Shown here one piece after another: positions 308-36,187 of a stretch of 42,933 nt of DNA; position 1 is the stretch's first letter, and every line of letters begins with the position of its first letter. Both the position numbers and the translations under genes were made by a program. This DNA comes from Chloroflexota bacterium (GTDB taxonomy: Bacteria; Chloroflexota; Anaerolineae; Anaerolineales; Villigracilaceae), in assembly GCA_043823965.1 (NCBI GenBank), contig JBDRTP010000313.1, forward strand, positions 1 to 42,933, in the 5' to 3' direction. Below the pieces are notes generated by a model. That model searched no databases. It saw only the letters and a list, made by a program, of their open reading frames with translations, and had not been told where the DNA came from.

Positions 308-1957
308 ATGCCTGATTATCCTCTCGTCGTCGAAAACCTTTCTTTTCGTTACCACACCCGCCCGGACCTGGCGATTAAAAATGTGTCGTTTCAGTTGAAA
401 CCGGGCGAACTCCTGCTCGTAGCCGGTTCCAGCGGGTGTGGGAAGACCACCCTGGCGCGCTGCATCAACGGTCTCATCCCACGCAGTTACAAAGGCGAAA
501 TCTCCGGCTTGGTAAGCCTGCATGGGCAGGAAGTCTCGGCCATGTCGTTGTTGGACATCTCGCAGGTCATTGGCACGCTGCTGCAAGACCCCGAACGCCA
601 GATTGTTGCCACGAATGTGACCGCTGAGATCGCCTTCGGGCCGGAAAATCTGGGCCTGCCGCGCGATGAGATTTTGACGCGCGTAGAGCGGGTTATTGCG
701 CGACTCAATATGGAGCATCTGCGCCAACGTGATACGTTCACGCTCTCCGGCGGCGAGAAGCAAAAGGTGGCTCTTGCTGGCTTGCTCGCCATGCGCCCCT
801 CCATTCTGCTTTTGGATGAACCGCTGGCCTCTCTCGACCCCGCTTCGGCCTACGAAGCCCTGGGCGTTTTCCGCAGCCTGGCCGACGAAGGCGCCACGAT
901 CATTCTGATCGAGCATCGAGTGGAGGATGCCCTCCAGGCGCGTCCCGACCGCATGCTCTACATGGCCGATGGGGAAACGCGCTACCTTGGCGCGGTGAAA
1001 AGGCTCCCTCCTGAGATCAACCATCATGAAGTCAAATTGCCTGCCTCCTGGGTGGTTCAGCGCGTCCGTCAGTCGGGCGAGACACCCAAGGTGCTGCGTC
1101 CGGCTGCATCCTCCGCTGTAGCTACTGAACCGCTTGTCCTGTTCGAGGATGTATCGTTCGCATATGGCGAAGGCCCCCTGGTCCTGCATGACATCAACCT
1201 GCAAATCCGCCGCGGTGACCTGATCGCCGTCCTGGGGCCGAACGGGGCAGGCAAGTCCACCCTGGTCAAACATGCCATCGGATTGCTCAAACCGACTCGC
1301 GGGCGTGTGCTGCTCGAGGGAAAGGACACCCGCGAGACGACCGTCGCCCACAACGCCCGTGCGGTCGGCTACGTTTTCCAAAGCCCGACCCACATGCTGT
1401 TCGCGCCGACCGTGCGTGAGGAACTGGCCTTTGGCCCGGGCAACCTGGGCTATCCGCCTGAAGAGACCCAGAGAAACGTGGAGGAGAGCATCGCCGCGGT
1501 CAACCTGATAGGCCTTGAAAACTATCCCCCGCTGGGGTTGTCATTCGGCCAGCAGAAGCGCACCACTATCGCGGCGGTGCTGGCGATGCGCTCGAAGATC
1601 ATGATCATGGATGAGCCGACCGCCGGGCAAGATTTTGCCAACTATACCCGCTTCATGGAAACGCTGTGCGGCGTTGCGGCCGAGGACGGCGCGTCGCTGC
1701 TCACCAAAAATTTCGCCGCCACGTTGTTCATTACTCACGACCTGGATCTGGCGGTCACGTATGCCAACCGGGTACTTTTGATTGGGGAAGGGCGCATCGT
1801 CGCCGATGGTTCCCCAGAGGAGGTGCTGCAGGACTTCAGTTTGCTAACGCGCTACCGTGTCCGCCCGACGTCGCTGCTGCGGTTGAATTGCGATCTCTAT
1901 CCCCAGACAAAATGCTTCATGCCAGCCGAGGCGCTGGCGGCATACGTCACGGCATGA
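308..1957 (+). CDS. ECF transporter ATPase, fused duplicated ABC domains (EcfA-EcfA')
   Basis: One 549-aa ORF holds two full ABC cassettes: Walker A GSSGCGKT and GPNGAGKS, signatures LSGGEKQ and LSFGQQK, Walker B LLLDEP and MIMDEP. ECF S and T genes follow directly. Confidence 0.9.
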   Translation: MPDYPLVVENLSFRYHTRPDLAIKNVSFQLKPGELLLVAGSSGCGKTTLARCINGLIPRSYKGEISGLVSLHGQEVSAMSLLDISQVIGTLLQDPERQIVATNVTAEIAFGPENLGLPRDEILTRVERVIARLNMEHLRQRDTFTLSGGEKQKVALAGLLAMRPSILLLDEPLASLDPASAYEALGVFRSLADEGATIILIEHRVEDALQARPDRMLYMADGETRYLGAVKRLPPEINHHEVKLPASWVVQRVRQSGETPKVLRPAASSAVATEPLVLFEDVSFAYGEGPLVLHDINLQIRRGDLIAVLGPNGAGKSTLVKHAIGLLKPTRGRVLLEGKDTRETTVAHNARAVGYVFQSPTHMLFAPTVREELAFGPGNLGYPPEETQRNVEESIAAVNLIGLENYPPLGLSFGQQKRTTIAAVLAMRSKIMIMDEPTAGQDFANYTRFMETLCGVAAEDGASLLTKNFAATLFITHDLDLAVTYANRVLLIGEGRIVADGSPEEVLQDFSLLTRYRVRPTSLLRLNCDLYPQTKCFMPAEALAAYVTA

Positions 1958-2053
1958 GGGAACATTCGCTCTGTAACCTTTCTTTCGTAGTCGGGTTAAT
2001 CAAAATGGGTCGGCCTATCCAAAAATCCAATCAATATAGAGAGGAGTAATGCA

Positions 2054-2599
2054 ATGGACAAGAAACTGTGGGAATTCAGTACCCGCCAGGTCGTCTACGG
2101 CGCCATCGGAGCGGCGCTGTATGGCGTTTTCTCGTGGGTCACCAACGTCATCCCCCTGCCTGCGGCGGGGAATATCACCTTCCGCCCAGCGGTGGCCGTG
2201 CTGATCTTCTTCGGCGCTGCTTACGGCCCGTGGGTGGGGTTGATCTCCGGCTTGGTCGGCAATATCCTGGGCGACGCCATCAGCGGTTGGGGCTTCTGGT
2301 GGCACTGGAGCCTCGGCAACGGCCTGATGGGCATGATCCCTGGCCTGGCGATGGGTCTCATCAAAGAATACAACAAGAAGAAAGACATCTCCATCGCCGT
2401 CGGCTTCGGCGCGGTCGGCATCGCCATCGGCATGTTGTTTGCCTCGCTGATGGAGATCGTCACCGGCGGCATTGACATGGCTACCGCCCTGATTGGCTAC
2501 TTCACCCCGGCCTTCCTGGGCAACCTGGTGGTGACGGTGGTGTTGCTGCCCATCCTGATGGTGGCATATCACGCCGTGGTTGCGAGGCGCGGCCGCTAA
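2054..2599 (+). CDS. ECF transporter substrate-capture (S) component, substrate unknown
   Basis: 181-aa, very hydrophobic, Gly/Trp-rich multi-TM protein located between the ECF ATPase and EcfT. Confidence 0.7.
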   Translation: MDKKLWEFSTRQVVYGAIGAALYGVFSWVTNVIPLPAAGNITFRPAVAVLIFFGAAYGPWVGLISGLVGNILGDAISGWGFWWHWSLGNGLMGMIPGLAMGLIKEYNKKKDISIAVGFGAVGIAIGMLFASLMEIVTGGIDMATALIGYFTPAFLGNLVVTVVLLPILMVAYHAVVARRGR

Positions 2600-3493
2600 A
2601 TGCTGGTTGCCTGGAAGTATCGGCCGCGCAACACGATCATTCAACGGCTTGACCCGCGCGCCAGGCTGATCTTCCTGGCTTGTCTGTTCGCCGCCTTTTC
2701 AATCGCCCAGATCTGGGATATCCGCCTGCTGTTGCCGCTATTCGCGCTTTCCCTCGTCCTGTACTTCCTGGCGCGCATCGAGTGGCGGGACATCAAGCGT
2801 GCATGGATTTTCATCCTGATTCTGGTCGTGTTCATCGTCGGCATCAACGCGCTCATCGCCGGGCGGGGCGGCCCGACCGCGGTGCTCCATGAACAATCGC
2901 CCGTGGTGATCTTTCAGACGCCTACGCTCGAGATCCCCGGCACGCCCTGGAGCATCACCATCACCATCACGGTGGTCAAGGCCTTTTTTGCCGTCACCCA
3001 GATGGTGCGCATGTTGACGATGGCCATCCTGGCGATTCCCATCCCATATACGATTGACCCGGCGGTTTACGGCGTCAGTTTCCGACGCATGGGCCTGCCC
3101 GATAAAGCCTCGTTTACGATGGACCTGGCTTTTCGCTTCATCCCGACCCTGGGGCGGGATTTCGCCATCACCATAGACGCCCAGCGCGCCCGCGGCTATG
3201 AAATGGAAAGCCTGAAAGGTGGCATCGTCAGCCGTTTGCGCAAACTGGCCCCATTGATCGTGCCGGTGACCATGCAGTCCATCGTGACCGGCGAGGAAGT
3301 GGTGGACGCCATGGACCTGCGCGCTTTCGGCGTGCGTCCGCGCACTTGGCTGCGGGAACTGCACTATGAACGCCGTGATTACCTCTTCATCGGTTTTGGC
3401 TTGGCGATTCTTCTAGCTTCGATTGTCCTGAAGTTGCTGGGCTACGGTCGCTTCTGGATGCCCGAGGCGCTTCTTCGCTGGGCGGGAGGGTGA
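2600..3493 (+). CDS. ecfT: ECF transporter transmembrane (T) component, EcfT/CbiQ family
   Basis: 297-aa multi-TM ORF whose start abuts the S-component stop (TAAATG). It carries an EcfT-type coupling motif region, IDAQRARGYE. Confidence 0.85.
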   Translation: MLVAWKYRPRNTIIQRLDPRARLIFLACLFAAFSIAQIWDIRLLLPLFALSLVLYFLARIEWRDIKRAWIFILILVVFIVGINALIAGRGGPTAVLHEQSPVVIFQTPTLEIPGTPWSITITITVVKAFFAVTQMVRMLTMAILAIPIPYTIDPAVYGVSFRRMGLPDKASFTMDLAFRFIPTLGRDFAITIDAQRARGYEMESLKGGIVSRLRKLAPLIVPVTMQSIVTGEEVVDAMDLRAFGVRPRTWLRELHYERRDYLFIGFGLAILLASIVLKLLGYGRFWMPEALLRWAGG

Positions 3494-3511
3494 CCAGGAT
3501 ATGTTCCCCAA

Positions 3512-3545
3512 GAGACCGTCCTGCACGCGACGGTCTCATTTGTTT
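3512..3545 (+). terminator. Intrinsic terminator after ecfT
   Basis: Stem GAGACCGTC (3512-3520) pairs with GACGGTCTC (3529-3537), followed by ATTTGTTT. Confidence 0.6.
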
Positions 3546-3609
3546 AAGCTTGGCGACTTGGCGGTAAAAATCTTGTTGACGGCTTGGGTTTGGAGGACGG
3601 GAGGCATAG

Positions 3610-3615
3610 TATAAT
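3610..3615 (+). promoter_or_regulatory. Candidate -10 box (AGTATAAT) for the DUF433/PIN-like pair
   Basis: TATAAT at 3610-3615, upstream of the palindromic element and the 3727 start. Confidence 0.35.
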
Positions 3616-3631
3616 TACTCTGTTGCTATCC

Positions 3632-3682
3632 GTAGCGCGGAATTCATTCCGCAACCAAATGGCGATATGAATATCGCGCTAC
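3632..3682. repeat. REPIN-like inverted doublet of GTAG-headed palindromes
   Basis: GTAGCGCGGAATTCATTCCGC (3632-3652) and, inverted, GCGATATGAATATCGCGCTAC (3662-3682). Each half holds its own hairpin (GCGGAAT/ATTCCGC and GCGATAT/ATATCGC). The outer 8-bp arms GTAGCGCG/CGCGCTAC also pair. Confidence 0.5.
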
Positions 3683-3726
3683 AAAATCTTCGCGATTGTG
3701 ATAGTTTTTCAAGAGTTATACTATAA

Positions 3727-4059
3727 ATGATGCCGGTAGAGGTCGAAATGACTAAAACAAGGATACCAGCCCGACAATTCATGCGGGAAGTGCGCGGCGG
3801 CGAGCCTTACGAATACTTCCCACTTGGCAAATACGTGGTGGCAGCGCCGGGTGTGTGTGGCGGGCGGCCTACTTTCAAGTACACGCGTCTCGAAGTCAGT
3901 CTCATTTTATCCCTTATCGCATCTGGCGAGACCATCGAGCAGGTGGTTCAGGCATATTCCCTCAGCCAGCTTACGCCTGAGGCTGTGCGAGAGGCTATCC
4001 AACTGGCTGGTCTGGCGCTGGTACACTCAACGGAAACACTACAACCCGTTGCTGCTTGA
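3727..4059 (+). CDS. DUF433 domain protein (antitoxin-like)
   Basis: The motif PGVCGGRPTFKYTRLEVSLILSLIASGETIEQVVQAY is typical of DUF433. A PIN-like partner starts 4 nt downstream. Confidence 0.75.
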   Translation: MMPVEVEMTKTRIPARQFMREVRGGEPYEYFPLGKYVVAAPGVCGGRPTFKYTRLEVSLILSLIASGETIEQVVQAYSLSQLTPEAVREAIQLAGLALVHSTETLQPVAA

Positions 4060-4062
4060 GCC

Positions 4063-4467
4063 ATGATCGTCATTGATGAGAATCTGCACGATCTGCGCAT
4101 CCTGGATGCCATTTCCGAGTGGTATCCGGGGCAGGTCATTTCGGTGATTACACTGCGCCCTGGTTCGGTCATCAAAGACGATGCCATACCAGCATTGCTG
4201 CTCAAAACTGAACAACCCACTTTCGTCACTATCAACGCCGCTGATTTCTGGAAGCGAATTCAGCCTCATCACGGCTATTGTGTCATTGTGGCTGATCTAC
4301 CTAAAGAGCGGGCATGGGAGGTTCCTGCGCTCCTGCGGCGCTTCTTCCGACTATTGGATTTCAAGATCAAGGCCTCACGAATGGGGAAGATTATCCGCCT
4401 GACGCTGAGAAGCGTTGAATATTACGAGGCTGACCGGCGCGTTCAATTATTACAATGGCCTGATTAA
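4063..4467 (+). CDS. PIN-like (DUF5615-type) protein, putative toxin partner of DUF433
   Basis: The N-terminus MIVIDENL... and the position directly after a DUF433 gene match the recurrent DUF433/DUF5615 pairing. Sequence similarity was judged by eye only. Confidence 0.5.
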   Translation: MIVIDENLHDLRILDAISEWYPGQVISVITLRPGSVIKDDAIPALLLKTEQPTFVTINAADFWKRIQPHHGYCVIVADLPKERAWEVPALLRRFFRLLDFKIKASRMGKIIRLTLRSVEYYEADRRVQLLQWPD

Positions 4468-4949
4468 CTTTCGAGCAGTAGACGCCAGTCAATCTCGTGA
4501 ACGGTCTTGTGCAGCCGGTGGTCGTCGTCCACGATGTGATAGTCCAGGTTACGGAAGACTTTCTCGGCCAGGGCGCGCACAGGTACGAGCGGGACGACCT
4601 CATCTTGCGTGCCATGAATAATGATGGTGGGAACATCCACCGGCGGGGGGAGATGTTCGGCGAATTCGGGCAGGGAGAGAGCGGGCGCGAGCAGGATGAG
4701 TTTGCGCACCTGCTGCGGGTGTTGACAGGTGAACAACGCGCCCATCAGCCCGCCGAAGCTGGAGCCGATGATCGTCCAGCCGGTTTTATCGCCGAGAATG
4801 GGATAGAGTTGCGCCATGCGTTCGGCCAGCGAGCCGGTAAAGTCAGGCGTGGATATGCCGGGGAACAAGCTATGTAGCAGGACGGCTTTTTCGCCCTGGC
4901 TGCTGCTTTCGAGGCCGTGCAGGAAGATGAGACGGGTGGGGTCAAACAT
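4464..4949 (-). CDS. Alpha/beta-fold hydrolase (small esterase-like)
   Basis: 161 aa with IFLHGLESS near the N-terminus, a nucleophile elbow GSSFGG, and a C-terminal DDDHRL (Asp/His). Confidence 0.75.
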   Translation of the reverse strand: MFDPTRLIFLHGLESSSQGEKAVLLHSLFPGISTPDFTGSLAERMAQLYPILGDKTGWTIIGSSFGGLMGALFTCQHPQQVRKLILLAPALSLPEFAEHLPPPVDVPTIIIHGTQDEVVPLVPVRALAEKVFRNLDYHIVDDDHRLHKTVHEIDWRLLLES

Positions 4950-5927: not shown

Positions 5928-8420
5928 ATGACAGAAGCCAAACAATTAACCCTCCCCATCACCGGCATGACCTGCGCCAACTGCGTGGCGACCATCGAGC
6001 GCAGCCTGAAAAAACTGGATGGCGTGCAGACGGCTGCCGTCAATCTCTCGTCCGAGCGCGCCACGGTGGGCTTTGACCCGTCGCTGCTCGGACTCGGCGA
6101 ACTGGTCGCGCGTGTCGAGCGCGCCGGTTACGGCGTGGCCAGCGGCGAAGCGAATTTGATCATCAAACGTCTCGCGGATGACAACGACGCCCGCCGCCTG
6201 GAAAAGTCGCTGCTCAAACTGGAAGGCGTGCTGGAAGCCTCGGTCAGCGTCGCGACCGAGCGGGCACGCGTGCGCTACATCCCCACAGTGGTGAGTCAGG
6301 CCGAGATACGGCGGATAGTTTCGGGGTCCGGTTTCGAGGCGCTGGAACTGGGCGGGGAAGCCGAGGATGCCGAGGCAAAGGCGCGTGCGGCGGAAATCCG
6401 TCAGCAGAAGCATTTACTCGTCACCGGCATTTTATTTACCGTGCCGCTTTTTTTGCTCTCGATGAGCAGGGATTTTGGGCTGCTGCCGGCCTTTTTCTAT
6501 CTGCCGGTGCAGGCGATGAGCGGTATGCGCGAGGCGCAATGGTGGTTCAACTGGCTGCTACTGGCGCTGGCGCTGCCGGTGCAGTTTTACGTCGGCTGGC
6601 AGTATTACGTCGGCGCGTATAAGGCGCTGCGCAACGGCTCGGCCAATATGGACGTGCTGATTGCGATGGGTACCTCGGCCGCGTTTTTCTATTCCCTGCC
6701 AATCACCTTTGGGTTGCTGGCGGGACACGTCTATTTCGAGACTGCCGCGGTGATTATTACGCTGATCAAGCTGGGTAAATTCCTCGAAGCGCGCGCCAAA
6801 GGGCGCACCAGCGAAGCCATCAAGAAATTGATGGCTCTGCGCGCCAAAACTGCGCGCGTGGTGCGTGACGGCGCAGAACTCGAAGTGCCGGTCGAGGATG
6901 TCAAGGTCGGCGACGTGGTGGTTGTCCGCCCGGGCGAAATAATTCCAGTGGACGGCGTGGTGGTGGACGGGCGCTCGGCGGTGGACGAATCCATGCTGAC
7001 CGGCGAATCGCTGCCAGTGGAAAAGAAACCCGGCGACCCGCTCATCGGCGCGACGCTCAACAAACTGGGTCTGCTCAAGCTCGAGGCCACCAAAGTTGGC
7101 AAAGAGACCGCCCTGGCGCAAATCGTGCGCCTGGTCGAGGAAGCGCAGGGCAGCAAAGCCCCCATCCAGAAACTGGCCGACCAGGTCTCGGCCACCTTCG
7201 TGCCGCTGGTTATTCTCATCGCGGCTCTCACGTTTGCCATCTGGTACTTCTTCGTTCCGCTGCCCGTCAATGCGGATGTCAGCCTGTTCACCCGCGCCCT
7301 GATCAACATGGTGGCCGTGCTGGTCATCGCCTGCCCGTGCGCCATGGGCCTGGCAACGCCGACCGCGGTCATGGTCGGCAGCGGCAAAGGCGCGGAGTTG
7401 GGGATTCTGTTTCGCAGCAGCGAAGCGTTGGAAAGAGCAGGCAAGGTCTCGATTGTTGTGCTGGATAAGACGGGGACGGTGACGAAGGGGCAGCCGGCGG
7501 TCACCGATATAGTGATCAGTGATCAGTATTCAGTGTTCAGTGGCACTGGTGACTGGAAACTGAACACTGAACACTTATTGCGTTTGGCCGCTTCCGTTGA
7601 AAAAGGTTCGGAACATCCCCTGGGCGAAGCCATCTGGGCCGAAGCCACGACCCGCGGCCTGCCGCTCGTCGAACCGGGCGGATTCAAGGCCGAGGCCGGG
7701 AACGGCGTCGAAGCTGAAGTAGAGGGTCACGCGGTTGTGGTGGGCAACCTGCGCATGATGGACGCCCGTCACTATCCGCTCAACGGTCTCGAAAAGGAAG
7801 TCGAACGCCTGCAATCCGAGGCCAAGACGGCCATGCTGGTGGCGGTGGACGGCGCGGTGCGCGGCGTGATTGCCGTGGCGGATACGGTCAAGGACGGCTC
7901 GAAGGAAGCCATTGACGAACTGCACCGCATGGGGCTGAAAGTCGCCATGATTACCGGCGACAATCGCAAGACCGCCGCGGCCATCGCGAAGCAAGTTGGG
8001 ATTGACATAGTTCTGGCTGAAGTATTGCCGGAAGGGAAAGCGGCGGAAGTCAAGCGTTTGCAGTCAGGCGTTGACAGGAATGTGGTTGCCATGGTTGGTG
8101 ACGGAGTGAATGACGCCCCGGCGCTGGCGCAAGCCGATGTTGGCATTGCGATTGGCACGGGAACAGATGTGGCCATGGCGGCTGCTCCGGTCACGCTCAT
8201 CAGCGGCGATTTGCGCGGCGTGGCGCGGGCGATTGCCCTCTCACGGCGCACGATGCGCACCATCAAGCAAAACCTGTTCTGGGCTTTTTTCTACAACGTG
8301 GTTTTGATACCGGCTGCGGCGATGGGATTGCTGAACCCGATGCTGGCGGCGGGTGCGATGGCGTTCAGCAGTGTGTTTGTGGTGAGTAATAGTTTGAGGT
8401 TGAGGCGAGCGAGGGTATAA
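5928..8420 (+). CDS. copA: Copper-translocating P1B-type ATPase CopA
   Basis: N-terminal HMA with GMTCANC, then a second HMA-like domain lacking CxxC. TGES, CPC, DKTGT and GDGVNDAP motifs are all present. Confidence 0.95.
7512..7574. repeat. Nine-unit heptamer array embedded in frame in copA
   Basis: GTGATCA GTGATCA GTATTCA GTGTTCA GTGGCAC TGGTGAC TGGAAAC TGAACAC TGAACAC (63 nt). The two halves are inverted relative to each other. It encodes [21 protein letters not shown] between DKTGT...VTDI and LLRLAAS. Confidence 0.9.
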
Positions 8421-16333: not shown

Positions 16334-16580
16334 GGCAAACCTGACATGTCTCACCCGCGCCGATGTCAATCATAACGTCCGCGGGGATGTGGGTCACGAT
16401 TGATCAGTCCCTTGCGGAGACACCTTCGGCAGGTTTTTGGGGAGAGAGGCAAACCTGACATGTCTCACCCGCGCTGTTGTCAACCATAACGTCCGCGTGG
16501 ACGTGGGTCATGATTAGTCAGTCCCTTGCGGAGACACACTTCGACAAGCTCAGTGCAACGCCTTCGGCAGTTTTTTGGGG
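16334..16580 (+). repeat. Tandem duplication of a ~110-bp inter-cassette unit
   Basis: Copy 1 is 16334-16442 and copy 2 is 16448-16580; copy 2 carries a ~23-bp insert. Each begins GGCAAACCTGACATGTCTCACCCGCGC and ends CCTTCGGCAGGTTTTTGGGG, and the ends are imperfectly inverted. Confidence 0.85.
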
Positions 16581-20288: not shown

Positions 20289-20540
20289 ATGGTCACAAGA
20301 CATATTTCAATTGAGATTCCCGAATCCATTTTGCTCGCCGAAAAGACGGATGAAGTTGCTTTTGCTCGCGAGTTGCGCGTCCTTGCGGCGGTGAAACTGT
20401 ACGAGATGGGACGGTTGTCATCAGGCCGCGCCGCTGAACTGGCGGGTATGCCGCGCGTGGAGTTCCTTGTCAATTTGGGGCGATACAAAGTCTTTCCACT
20501 TCAAGCCGAATTAAACGATCTGGAAAGCCATGCCGCCTGA
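20289..20540 (+). CDS. UPF0175-family antitoxin-like protein
   Basis: LRVLAAVKLYEMGRLSSGRAAELAGMPRVEFLVNLGRY is the UPF0175 signature. Confidence 0.75.
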   Translation: MVTRHISIEIPESILLAEKTDEVAFARELRVLAAVKLYEMGRLSSGRAAELAGMPRVEFLVNLGRYKVFPLQAELNDLESHAA

Positions 20541-21021
20541 AGCCATCAGCAACACATCGCCATTGTTGTATCTTTATCGTATTGACGGACTCAATTGGCT
20601 TTCGAAACTGTTTGATTCCATTTGGGTTCCACAAGCCGTTGCAGATGAATTCAAAGAGGGGCGGCGCAGAGGCTATGATGTACCTGACCTTGCCAAATAC
20701 AACTGGTTGAAAATCGTTAATCCCAAAGCGATGCCGTCCGAATGGCTGGCTCTCGATTTGGGCGCGGGAGAACTGTCCGCGATGGCGCTTGCATTGGAAA
20801 ATCTCACTCGAATTATCTTGCTCGATGATTTGCTGGCGCGTCGTACTGCACAGGCGGCAGGTCTCACGGTTTGGGGAACGTTGAGGCTTTTGCTTGAAGC
20901 CAAATCGAACGGCCTGATCGATTCTGTCGGGATGTATATCAATCGTTTGAGTGAATCGGGTATGTGGATTTCAGACGAAGTCCGTCAACGGATTTTAGTG
21001 TTGGCAGGTGAACAACCATGA
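20530..21021 (+). CDS. DUF3368 (PIN-like) protein, putative toxin
   Basis: ISNTSPLLYLYRIDGLNWLSKLF...VPQAV..E matches the DUF3368 N-terminus. It overlaps the UPF0175 gene by 11 nt. Confidence 0.75.
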   Translation: MPPEAISNTSPLLYLYRIDGLNWLSKLFDSIWVPQAVADEFKEGRRRGYDVPDLAKYNWLKIVNPKAMPSEWLALDLGAGELSAMALALENLTRIILLDDLLARRTAQAAGLTVWGTLRLLLEAKSNGLIDSVGMYINRLSESGMWISDEVRQRILVLAGEQP

Positions 21022-22530: not shown

Positions 22531-23934
22531 ATGTCGAAGAGAGTTGACCTTTCATCTTGCGGCCTTCCGCCTTCCGCCTTGCTTGTTGTCGGCGTCTCCG
22601 GCGGCGCGGATAGTCTTTGTCTGCTTCACGTGCTCCACTCAGCGGGTTATTCGCTCATCGCGGCGCATTTCAATCACAAACTGCGCCCTGAAGCCGGCGC
22701 GGACGCCGAAGCCGTGCGCAGCGTTGCAAAAAAGATGGACGTGCCATTCGTGACCGAATCTGCGGATGTGAAGGCGTACGCCGCACAGGAAGGTTTATCC
22801 GTCGAAGAAGCCGCCCGCACGCTGCGTTATCGTTTTCTATTTGCCGAGGCTCGCAAACAAAAAGCGCAGGCTGTGGCCGTCGGCCATACCGCCGACGACC
22901 AGGTGGAGACAGTATTGATGCACTTCATTCGCGGCGCGGGGTTGGCGGGTTTGAAAGGCATGACTCCGCACACGATTTTACCGGTCTTTGAGGCTGAAAT
23001 CCCGCTTGTGCGCCCGTTGCTTTCACTCTGGCGTGCAGATACCGAAACCTATTGCCGCGCGCACGGACTGGACTTTATCACCGACGCCTCCAACGCCGAC
23101 CAGACCTACTTCCGCAACCGCCTGCGCCACAGCCTGATCCCTGAACTCGAAAAATATAATCCCCGCTTCAAAGAAGCCCTGGTGCGCACGGCGGGGGCCT
23201 TGCAAGGCGATCATGCCGCGTTGCAGGAAATGCTGGATCGGGCCTGGAAGGATGTCTTCGCCGAGGTGGGAGATGGCTGGTTCGCCTTCGAGAAGTCCGG
23301 ACTGGCAAAACTCTCCCCCGGTTTACGGCGGGATCTCATCCGCCGGGCGGCTGAAGCACTGCGGCCCGACAGCCGGGATTTTGGGTTCGAGGCGCTGGAG
23401 CGGGCGGCGGCGTTTGCCGAGACTCCCGCCGGGAAACAGATTGATTTTATGAATGGATTGTACCTTTTTGCCGAAGGCGGAAGAATCTACATCGCCGCTT
23501 ACGAAGCTGACTTGCCCTCTGCTCAATTTCCGCAGGTGACTGCCTCCTGCCTGCTGCCGACTGGCGAATGTCTTGACTTGGGCAACGGCTGGATACTGTC
23601 CACTGAACACTGTCCACTGAACACTGCTGACTGGTCACTGAACACCGATCACTGGTCAGCGTGGCTGGATGCTGATACAACGGGGAGCAGGCTCCAGGTC
23701 CGGCCGCGCCGCGAGGCTGATCGCTTTCAACCGCTGGGCATGGACGGGCGGTCAGTCAAATTATCTGATTTCTTCGTCAACGTCAAACTGCCCAAGCGGG
23801 CGCGGGCAAAATGGCCGCTGGTCTGCGTGGGCGATGAAATTGCCTGGCTGGCGGGGTTTCGCATCGCGCACCTGTTCCGCATCACCGAAAAGACGAAGCG
23901 AGTTGTTCATCTTTCCCTGGTGAATAAAAAGTAA
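22531..23934 (+). CDS. tilS: tRNA(Ile)-lysidine synthetase TilS
   Basis: PP-loop VGVSGGADS, HFNHKLR, GHTADDQVETVLM, and a C-terminal RPRREADRFQPLGM..SVKLSDFFVN.KLP. The ATG at 22531 follows the mce stop; the track start at 22258 overlaps mce. Confidence 0.9.
   Translation: MSKRVDLSSCGLPPSALLVVGVSGGADSLCLLHVLHSAGYSLIAAHFNHKLRPEAGADAEAVRSVAKKMDVPFVTESADVKAYAAQEGLSVEEAARTLRYRFLFAEARKQKAQAVAVGHTADDQVETVLMHFIRGAGLAGLKGMTPHTILPVFEAEIPLVRPLLSLWRADTETYCRAHGLDFITDASNADQTYFRNRLRHSLIPELEKYNPRFKEALVRTAGALQGDHAALQEMLDRAWKDVFAEVGDGWFAFEKSGLAKLSPGLRRDLIRRAAEALRPDSRDFGFEALERAAAFAETPAGKQIDFMNGLYLFAEGGRIYIAAYEADLPSAQFPQVTASCLLPTGECLDLGNGWILSTEHCPLNTADWSLNTDHWSAWLDADTTGSRLQVRPRREADRFQPLGMDGRSVKLSDFFVNVKLPKRARAKWPLVCVGDEIAWLAGFRIAHLFRITEKTKRVVHLSLVNKK
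23596..23658. repeat. Nine-unit heptamer array embedded in frame in tilS
   Basis: CTGTCCA CTGAACA CTGTCCA CTGAACA CTGCTGA CTGGTCA CTGAACA CCGATCA CTGGTCA (63 nt), encoding LSTEHCPLNTADWSLNTDHWS. Confidence 0.9.
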
Positions 23935-35231: not shown

Positions 35232-36110
35232 ATGACTGCTCAATTAATTGACGGAAAACTGATTGCCCAGCAAGTACGCGATAACGTCGCGGCCGAAGTG
35301 GCCAAGCGCACGGCGGCTGGCAAACCCAGGCCCGGCCTGGCGACGGTGCTGGTCGGCGACCGCGTCGACTCGGCTACCTACGTGGCCTCCAAGCAAAAGG
35401 CCTGCCAGGAATTGGGCATGGATTCGTTCCACAACCAACTGCCCGGCGATGCCACGCAGGAGCAGGTCGAGGATTTGGTGAAACGCTTGAATGCCGACCC
35501 GAAGGTCAACGGCATACTGGTGCAGTTGCCCCTGCCCTCGCACCTGAATGAGGAGCGCGTCCTGCAATTGATCAACATCGAAAAAGACGTGGATGGCTTC
35601 TCGCCGATCAACATTGGGCGATTAGCGCAGAAGGGCCGCGAGCCGCTCTTCGTGCCATGCACGCCCTACGGCTGCATCTACCTGCTCGAGCAGGCAGGTG
35701 TGCAAATCGAGGGGGCGAACGCGGTGGTGCTGGGCCGCTCGAACATCGTCGGCATGCCGGCTGCACTGCTGCTGATTGGCAAGAATGCCACCGTGACGGT
35801 TTGCCACTCACGCACCAAGGACCTGCCCGGCGTCGTCCGCCAGGCGGATATTCTCATCGCCGCCATCGGCAAAATGGAAATGGTGCGCGGCGACTGGATC
35901 AAGCCCGGCGCGGCGGTGATCGACGTGGGCATCAACTCCAAGCCCGACCCGACCAAGAAAAGCGGCTACCGCCTGGTCGGCGATGTAAACTTCGACGAAG
36001 TTAAGGAAGTGGCCGGCTTCATTACCCCCGTCCCCGGCGGCGTCGGCCCGATGACGATCGCTATGTTGATGAGGAATACGCTGCGGGCGGCGCAGATACA
36101 GAACCCGTAG
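35232..36110 (+). CDS. folD: Bifunctional methylenetetrahydrofolate dehydrogenase/cyclohydrolase FolD
   Basis: LIDGK..A, GLATVLVGD..DS..YV..K.K, GILVQLPLP, VDGF, CTP.G, VVLGRSNIVG.P, PVPGGVGPMT. Confidence 0.95.
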   Translation: MTAQLIDGKLIAQQVRDNVAAEVAKRTAAGKPRPGLATVLVGDRVDSATYVASKQKACQELGMDSFHNQLPGDATQEQVEDLVKRLNADPKVNGILVQLPLPSHLNEERVLQLINIEKDVDGFSPINIGRLAQKGREPLFVPCTPYGCIYLLEQAGVQIEGANAVVLGRSNIVGMPAALLLIGKNATVTVCHSRTKDLPGVVRQADILIAAIGKMEMVRGDWIKPGAAVIDVGINSKPDPTKKSGYRLVGDVNFDEVKEVAGFITPVPGGVGPMTIAMLMRNTLRAAQIQNP

Positions 36111-36159
36111 TGATCAGTGATCAGTGTTCAGTATTCAGTTACCAGTAGCCAGTGAGCAG
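36111..36159. repeat. Seven-unit heptamer (TNNNCAG) tandem repeat, intergenic
   Basis: TGATCAG TGATCAG TGTTCAG TATTCAG TTACCAG TAGCCAG TGAGCAG, starting directly after the folD stop. Confidence 0.9.
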
Positions 36160-36187
36160 TCCCGTCGCGAGGCGGGACTGTCTGTTT
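36157..36187 (+). terminator. Intrinsic terminator after folD
   Basis: CAGTCCCG...CGGGACTG stem followed by TCTGTTT. Confidence 0.65.

Follow-up and report, generated by a model that had tools for sequence, protein, structure and literature searches.

An in-frame array of ACTG-core heptanucleotides in tilS of a groundwater Anaerolineales bacterium and its relation to a dispersed repeat family

How does a tandem run of seven-nucleotide units come to lie in frame inside an essential gene, and what kind of process writes it there? The question is raised by tilS, the gene for tRNA(Ile)-lysidine synthetase, in a stretch of 42,933 nt from an uncultured groundwater Anaerolineales (Chloroflexota), hereafter called the window, where a heptamer array occupies positions 23596..23658 of the forward strand. 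Three loci with ACTG-core units are found within these ~43 kb. We regard it as fairly probable that the tilS tract belongs, as a single copy, to a family of heptanucleotide tandem repeats that is specific to the lineage and spread over the genome, and that it grew in place and was filtered for the reading frame. In-place growth by slippage or template switching on ACTG microhomology is the most likely mechanism, and seeding was probably provided by ACTG-containing codons that were already there.

The tilS tract and its position in the protein

The tract consists of the units CTGTCCA, CTGAACA, CTGTCCA, CTGAACA, CTGCTGA, CTGGTCA, CTGAACA, CCGATCA and CTGGTCA, and it is translated in the tilS frame as LSTEHCPLNTADWSLNTDHWS, which corresponds to residues 356-376. 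The pattern CTGNNNA is followed by eight of the nine units, the exception being the eighth, CCGATCA. Read in the ACTG register, the array spans 23595-23654 and comprises eight intact ACTG cores and one ACCG. Tandem Repeats Finder reported periods of 7, 14 and 21 for the tract, the opening 32 nt of which form an exact 14-nt repeat. Moreover, four ACTG cores at 7-nt spacing were counted 10 times in the window, as against 0.00 in 100 dinucleotide-preserving shuffles, and when all 256 tetramers are ranked by the period-7 chains that they form in the window, ACTG and CAGT take the first two places. By sequence parsing, repeat finding and shuffling, the array is genuine: it is real, non-random and in frame.

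The number of units depends on where the boundary is drawn. A sequence-only reading of the window had counted exactly nine, and nine heptamers can indeed be parsed at 23596-23658; nevertheless, the register table contains a tenth in-register unit, CTGGATA (23589..23595, forward strand), which overlaps the codon of the invariant W354, while CCGATCA does not fit the pattern. Both the register table and Tandem Repeats Finder also revealed a further, weakly periodic stretch of period 7 upstream that keeps this register (CTGCCTC CTGCCTG CTGCCGA CTGGCGA; 23540..23567, forward strand), which stands where relatives carry an inverted (CAGTNNN)n arm.

The host gene (22531..23934, forward strand; 467 amino acids) was delimited as an open reading frame and by its profile and PDB matches, and its likely start is the ATG at 22531, directly after an upstream glyoxalase open reading frame. 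The N-terminal part of the protein matches TIGR02432 over residues 18-204 (187 bits, against a cutoff of 93.6) and, above cutoff, PF01171 over residues 18-200, with the SGGADS motif of the TilS PP-loop ATPase domain at residues 23-28. The C-terminal profiles PF11734 (above cutoff) and TIGR02433 begin at residue 388, the Pfam TilS_C match covering residues 388-458, and matches among solved structures were 3A2K (E = 7e-46), 1WY5 and 1NI5. As both the N-terminal PP-loop ATPase domain with its SGGxDS motif and the TilS C-terminal domain are present, the host protein is assigned to TilS on sequence grounds.

The array had been placed in a variable linker before the TilS C-terminal domain, and it does precede the Pfam match at 388-458. 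However, residues 342-445 align with the solved TilS structures 3A2K and 3HJ7, and an AlphaFold2 model (mean pLDDT 72) contains a strand at residues 354-362, a loop of lower pLDDT at 363-375 and a second strand at 376-380. The tract is accordingly modelled not as a free linker but as a beta-hairpin with which the C-terminal fold begins, ahead of the Pfam boundary, and the predicted hairpin loop is a plausible place for a passenger peptide to be tolerated. The 120 TilS homologues collected are all full length. In the protein alignment A1, W354 and W375 are invariant, D373 is nearly invariant (at least 90% of sequences) and E359 is conserved. D373 and W375 align with the N-D-W of Geobacillus TilS, and conservation of E359, D373 and W375 predates the array, since homologues without an array and TilS of Geobacillus have conserved residues there too.

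Relatives, sister arrays and the reading frame

The distribution of the array was followed at the DNA level across 89 tilS loci, with the array segment extracted (tblastn-anchored) from approximately two-thirds of them. Where TilS is at least 67% identical to that of the window, the array position holds 3 to 10 ACTG cores; at ~60% identity it holds one or two, inside the conserved codons for T-D-N-W (ACT GAC AAC TGG), and below ~58% it holds none. Species of the last group have instead a conserved and non-repetitive peptide, WxIPALAREQxxxNEDPFQVWLDAD (PALAREQ..NEDPFQVWLDAD). It had been recognised at the outset that a segment which is ancient, non-repetitive in relatives and conserved as protein would speak against a repeat origin. 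Within the clade the segment is nothing of the kind, and a sequence of that description is found only beyond ~58% identity, where it is a different conserved peptide.

Segment lengths among the 120 homologues fall into discrete classes. The segment of the upstream arm measures 13 (57 homologues), 20 (37) or 27 amino acids (one), and the array segment 20 (90), 27 (two) or 34 amino acids (one), so that the classes lie 7 amino acids apart, which corresponds to steps of 21 nt, or three units. In the DNA of loci L087, L088 and L089, the additional 7 or 14 amino acids prove to be additional heptamer units, and tilS of L088 contains ten perfect ACTG cores. The stretch from W354 to W375, measurable in 103 homologues, is 20 amino acids long in 90 of them, whatever number of cores can be recognised; this constant length implies that the repeats replaced ancestral sequence and that no 63 nt were added. 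The idea of an exact array of nine, or of a preferred 63-nt insertion unit, was therefore rejected: a tenth unit can be accommodated, the number of cores in orthologues ranges from 3 to 10, no net insertion is seen and the nine units are themselves composite.

Most array-bearing species additionally carry an inverted arm upstream, with up to ~11 CAGT-type units, some of degenerate core (L001, L002, L083, L087, L089 and, weakly, L088). Between the two tilS arms lie ~50 nt encoding a conserved ELGNGW(V/I)L.VE, which is conserved in array-free species too. The upstream CAGT arm is absent from the window, L081 and L085, all of which have an intact tilS.

Two sister elements were found in the window. 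The first (7511..7575, forward strand) is composed of (NNNCAGT)x4 followed by (ACTGNNN)x4 and lies in frame in copA, a P-type ATPase by domain scan. It is a compact imperfect palindrome of ~70 nt, with partial units at both ends, and is predicted to form a long imperfect RNA hairpin of -32.8 kcal/mol (z = -5.0). Its earlier description as an array of nine, of the same 63-nt length as that in tilS, has to be replaced by that of an inverted pair with four CAGT and then four ACTG cores. The peptides encoded in copA and tilS are alike, as had been noticed, but this likeness is a trivial outcome of the same DNA units being read in the same frames. The second element, (NNNCAGT)x7, begins at the stop codon of folD, a gene recognised by its domains, and lies in the 3' untranslated region (36109..36160, forward strand). 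Its last CAGT, together with a downstream ACTG, makes the stem base of a terminator-like hairpin predicted by folding (36156..36181, forward strand). This intergenic array has the same 4+3 unit structure as the tilS array.

Similar strings are widespread in the communities sampled. Contig depth over the arrays exceeded that of the flanks ~2-5x at tilS (eight runs), and 10-30x at copA (7512-7547) and folD (36106-36153) in four groundwater runs. The extra depth arises because contigs of other loci align there and continue into unrelated sequence, and the excess implies that many other loci in these communities carry near-identical unit strings. In addition, a metagenome scan for seven cores recovered at least 120 loci of mixed taxa (L090-L209) which, among the matches listed, range in GC content from 21% to 74% and are mostly without an open frame across the array. 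Heptamer arrays as a general property of the order were considered and rejected, as 619 kb of sequence around tilS in Anaerolineales yielded only three unrelated arrays built on other cores (L018, L028 and L060). In L088, ACTG arrays of five cores (4680-4711) and of three to four cores (6216-6240) were observed within a gene for an Fe-S / CCG-domain oxidoreductase that lies on the opposite strand, from which it follows that an in-gene array can have a recognisable unit number that three does not divide.

Strains were compared by means of Logan contigs from eight groundwater metagenome runs. No indel was detected in the tilS array in these runs, in contigs that suppress rare variants and hence leave room for low-frequency slippage in tilS, and the unit count is equal in the window, L081 and L085; the polymorphism in three-unit steps that had been predicted for close strains was thus not encountered. 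Unit-number polymorphism among strains was likewise looked for in the copA array, and none was seen. The only unit-number variant observed among strains is a contig of run X1 with +14 nt (two units) in the intergenic folD array, as expected if slippage occurs and the frame matters only in genes. The suggestion that lengths are filtered for frame neutrality is supported by these results: homologues of tilS differ in steps of 21 nt that are extra units in L087-L089, whereas the +14 nt variant is confined to the intergenic array. As in phase-variable contingency loci, a short tandem repeat here lies in coding sequence and could slip. However, tilS is a housekeeping gene and not a surface or restriction gene, unit polymorphism was not seen among strains, the eight runs contain no frame-shifting unit changes, and homologue lengths are all in frame, with no on/off switching.

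A different kind of insertion was also observed in this region. Between units 8 and 9 of the tilS array, L081 (11117-11141) and also L082 have a 24-nt non-heptamer insert, cccttcgactttgctcagggcgag, with the peptide PSTLLRAS. Inserts of 8 or 16 amino acids at the same site are present in several other homologues (P0013, P0019, P0028 and P0045), and a similar string follows an array in X4 and X8 contigs. A dispersed family for this insert was rejected, as, of 209 loci searched for the pattern CCTTCGN5GCTCAGGGC, L081 and L082 alone contained it, with one weak match in the window.

The palindromic shape of the copA element invites an explanation by mobility, in which the tilS array would be one arm of a small mobile palindromic element (REP/REPIN-, MITE- or SDR-like), possibly inserted by a Y1/HUH transposase with specificity for a hairpin together with the tetranucleotide. 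Besides that ~70-nt palindrome, the many near-identical unit strings at other loci agree with such an origin, as do a second small hairpin-like insert (PSTLLRAS) inside the L081 array, the fixed polarity around a centre described below, which suits hairpin-specific enzymes, and possibly a Y1_Tnp gene (IS200/IS605 or RAYT-like; L088 17468-17803) 6 kb from the ten-unit tilS. Nevertheless, the tilS arms flank the ELGNGW segment that array-free species conserve, so the two arms were not inserted together; comparison with array-free homologues reveals no net insertion, and the number of units changes by degrees from one orthologue to another. The examples inspected displayed neither conserved termini nor target-site duplications, and no transposase gene was found near the arrays among the scanned open reading frames of the window. 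REP sequences and REPINs (Bertels and Rainey 2011) do resemble these repeats in being dispersed and hairpin-forming, with inverted pairs and many copies per genome, but they have defined ends, are extragenic and do not consist of 7-nt tandem units. Unit insertion, defined ends and empty sites, by which elements of the REP, REPIN or MITE kind are recognised, were not found among the tilS relatives, where the arms flank ancestral coding sequence, and a mobile origin is, in our judgement, distinctly improbable.

Constraint on the ACTG core and polarity of the arrays

Each unit is composed of an ACTG core (CAGT on the other strand) and three variable bases, with the consensus ACTG-A-(T/A)-C. Among 109 units from the window and six related species, the consensus base is found at each core position in 104-109, a count that is partly circular, as the arrays were picked by ACTG chains. 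The commonest units are ACTGAAC, ACTGGTC and ACTGATC; six different variable triplets occur among the nine units of the window's tilS array, the units of which are not near-identical. Codon usage follows the core: threonine is encoded by ACT in 27 of 34 cases in the linker segment, as against 23 of 146 in the remainder of tilS (p = 2e-12), and serine by AGT in 15 of 45 and 6 of 182 cases, respectively. Strains differ at ten array sites. The three variable positions account for eight of these (p = 0.02), and the encoded residue is altered by most of the differences; of the two sites that belong to the core, one is the ACCG of the window, where most other strains read ACTG. Altogether, the codon bias for threonine and serine and the clustering of strain differences at the variable bases suggest that the process behind the repeats acts on DNA.

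The same observations bear on whether selection acted on the protein, in that a 7-residue repeat (xPLNTDHW) could have been gained for a function of TilS such as tRNA or metal binding. The tract does contain the conserved E359, D373 and W375, its peptide holds Cys, His and Asp, and a similar peptide is present in the copper ATPase. Still, a 7-nt DNA period read in three frames cannot come from peptide selection, the same units occur in non-coding DNA, and the conserved residues are older than the array. A protein repeat would leave synonymous codons free, whereas here the codons are fixed, with the rare ACT and AGT almost exclusive to the array region, and it is the amino acids that vary, also among strains. 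We therefore consider this explanation very improbable. As the core is held at synonymous sites while the peptide drifts, protein-level selection cannot account for the pattern, and slippage with neutral decay accounts for it only partly.

A second regularity concerns orientation. Where opposite arrays lie near each other, the CAGT arm is 5' of the ACTG arm in 16-22 cases and 3' of it in 1-3 (p ~2e-4; among the matches listed), and the order CAGT then ACTG recurs in copA, in tilS of relatives and at the folD terminator. Folding was better than in shuffles for tilS of L002 (z = -3.8) and of L083, and not for the window's tilS tract (z = -1.65). The tilS arms are complementary only through their cores, their variable positions being complementary in 26 of 69 cases (38%), against 34% for the null and 45% across all pairs examined. 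Selection for a hairpin in tilS was rejected, given that the arms pair only through cores and that the window allele has no upstream arm.

Taken together, the resistant core and the fixed polarity could also be those of functional nucleic-acid elements, either binding sites for a factor that reads ACTG/CAGT every 7 nt or transcript hairpins acting in regulation, pausing or termination. Analogies exist in HutP, whose targets are UAG repeats at 7-nt spacing, and in TRAP, which recognises GAG repeats. The core resists drift while variable bases and amino acids change freely, inverted pairs keep their polarity, the folD array adjoins a terminator-like hairpin and shares its stem, and paired arms outfold shuffles in copA and in L002 tilS. 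Moreover, a post-transcriptional regulator was proposed by MacGregor for TAACTGA repeats (PMC4679880). Set against this are the near-null complementarity of the tilS arms outside their cores, the absence of an upstream arm from the window, L081 and L085 despite an intact tilS, a window tract that folds no better than shuffles, and a number and position of units that vary freely among orthologues. No candidate binding protein was identified, and no Rfam family matched anywhere in the window. A function of this kind is, in our view, unlikely.

Growth in place, which we favour, would have proceeded as follows. In the ancestor of an Anaerolineales subclade, the T-D-N-W codons (ACT GAC AAC TGG) would already have held two ACTG cores 7 nt apart, and slipped-strand mispairing or template switching via ACTG microhomology would have multiplied units toward the 5' side, while an inverted CAGT arm grew beyond the conserved ELGNGW segment. 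In an essential gene, only three-unit changes (21 nt, 7 amino acids) without a stop codon would persist. Because the length of the beta-hairpin would be constrained, expansions would be offset by deletions, and the ancestral peptide would be replaced rather than the protein lengthened. The encoded peptide may then be a tolerated surface-loop passenger with no TilS function of its own, in which only E359, D373 and W375 are kept as needed by TilS. The repeats would further supply homology for recombination, the window allele being the resulting mosaic.

Several observations weigh against this account. Close strains show no variation in tilS unit number, so that ongoing slippage is not demonstrated there. 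Moreover, the first four units replaced non-repeat sequence without net change in length, which needs two compensating events or a patch resembling gene conversion. With eight of the ten polymorphisms in variable positions and the synonymous sites of the core fixed, decay is uneven, whereas slippage with neutral decay should erode all seven positions alike, which argues that something beyond slippage keeps ACTG. Finally, simple slippage does not predict the CAGT-then-ACTG polarity. The fixed core and the inverted-pair polarity are thus not fully explained by the slippage mechanism.

One way to cover what slippage leaves over would be a sequence-specific, polar DNA process that writes and maintains ACTG arrays beyond generic slippage. 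Candidates may be a templated addition to DNA ends, or their healing, with subsequent rejoining, or else nick-and-slip at hairpin bases. We hold such a process to be quite unlikely. If it did exist, it would explain a fixed tetranucleotide beside three free bases and a near-invariable order of CAGT then ACTG, the presence of the same core in STRR1, STRR3, TAACTGA (Beggiatoaceae, Bacteroidetes) and Chloroflexota, and the overwriting of conserved coding sequence of an essential gene at unchanged length. The tilS orthologues, from array-free to ten-unit, constitute a natural series in a conserved, essential and alignable gene, and may serve as a handle for testing slippage against a dedicated mechanism. 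This series shows that a conserved peptide can be replaced, that only 21-nt steps survive, and that ACTG stays constant while variable bases and amino acids drift.

A mosaic allele and earlier heptamer families

The window's tilS allele is itself composed of two types of sequence. Sliding-window comparison with L083 gave 96-100% identity, dropping to 20-73% over about 23452-23626, while comparison with L085 gave 98-100% identity in a 'type A' cassette of ~150 nt (23476..23626, forward strand, both boundaries being approximate) and 60-88% elsewhere in tilS (~76% as protein). Unit by unit, array units 1-5 match L085, units 6-7 are common to the window, L083 and L085, and units 8-9 with the sequence downstream match L083. 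On this comparison the window array is recombinant, with the crossover placed inside the repeats around units 5-7, and the sharing of the cassette indicates recent recombination between diverged groundwater lineages.

Since repeats common to many loci draw foreign contigs, and since the mosaic junction lies inside a repeat, an assembler could have switched strains there, making the tract or the mosaic a metagenome assembly artefact. Yet the same haplotype runs without differences across both junctions in contigs of 470 nt (X8, depth 92), 530 nt (X5) and 380 nt (X1), which come from independent runs and studies, and an NCBI metagenome-assembled genome has a TilS identical at 465 of 467 residues. 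These independent junction-spanning contigs and the protein match argue that there is no assembly chimera. In addition, the cassette recurs in L081 and L085, which were assembled independently, and we find an artefact hardly credible.

Dispersed heptanucleotides are not new in bacteria. Cyanobacterial STRRs (short tandemly repeated repetitive sequences) have been known since 1990, when Mazel et al. reportedly described STRR1 as CCCCAGT and STRR3 as CAACAGT. Among the long simple-sequence repeats of prokaryotes, heptamers form the most abundant class, with polymerase slippage as their proposed cause (Mrazek 2007, as cited in PMC4679880 and PMC4692102). For this class, as far as it is characterised in those citations of Mrazek et al. 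2007, a repeat inside a gene would be expected to last only if three divides its length, as is found in tilS. Of the features of heptanucleotide repeats, tandem 7-nt units beyond chance and dispersal at many loci are found here, and near-identity of units is not.

Rehm et al. 2015 gave the STRR repeat as GGGGA(C/T)T in Nostoc PCC 7120, with its origin and function left unexplained (PMC4692102). As (GGGGACT)n is (ACTGGGG)n in another register, the STRR shares the CAGT/ACTG tetranucleotide with the window family. STRRs also resemble it in forming tandem heptamers at many loci, mostly outside genes and sometimes in functional ones, for which slippage has been invoked. On the other hand, the present host is an Anaerolineales bacterium and not a cyanobacterium, the units of the window array differ in the three non-core bases whereas those of STRRs are near-identical, and the window array has no G-quadruplex potential and lies in frame in an essential enzyme, where it has replaced a conserved peptide. 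Rehm et al. also described 70-75 inverted GGGAATC pairs in Xanthomonas, always convergent (PMC4692102), which parallel the CAGT-then-ACTG polarity seen here, although the core differs.

MacGregor 2015 described TAACTGA repeats in marine Beggiatoaceae, Cyanobacteria and Bacteroidetes, with LSVISYQ as the reverse translation and occasional occurrence in open reading frames or over stop codons; in Microcystis, these arrays mix with other heptamers, and strains differ in 7-nt increments (PMC4679880). They have the ACTG core in common with the present family. Moreover, the reverse complement TCAGTTA occurs as an actual single unit in the tilS upstream arm of L001, L002 and L083, and LSVISYQ resembles the QLSVISNQ encoded by the upstream arm of relatives. 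The window's tilS array, however, contains no TAACTGA unit. TAACTGA arrays have 2-6 nearly exact units and mostly lie just upstream of start codons, whereas the window array is at residues 356-376 of 467. Forward TAACTGA has stop codons in all frames, while the Anaerolineales units in tilS are variable and translated in the forward ACTG orientation, which is translatable because units giving an in-frame TGA are avoided.

Overall, the tilS tract is a known kind of dispersed heptanucleotide repeat, met with now in a further phylum and within a gene that is essential. We found no report on heptamer repeats in Chloroflexi in the literature, and for long heptamer repeats no example of a stepwise take-over of a conserved protein segment is known. 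The ACTG-core family is thereby extended to Chloroflexota, and its repeats can act as crossover points between diverged strains. For annotation, LNTEH, SVISNQ or CPLNTDHW peptides in unrelated proteins should be read as artefacts of the DNA and not as homology.

Some further features of these loci were recorded. The window contains, at 16334-16543, a 114-nt unit in 1.8 tandem copies of 90% identity, apparently non-coding and without an Rfam match. Upstream of tilS, a DUF3368/PIN-like open reading frame lies at 20530-21021 of the window, and toxin-antitoxin-type clusters (HEPN/nucleotidyltransferase, PhdYeFM/PIN and PemK) are present upstream of tilS in L083 (570-3008) and L085 (3300-6066). Finally, the closest long contig, L081, encodes an MmeI-like type IIL restriction-modification gene at 1515-4394, 5.6 kb upstream of tilS.

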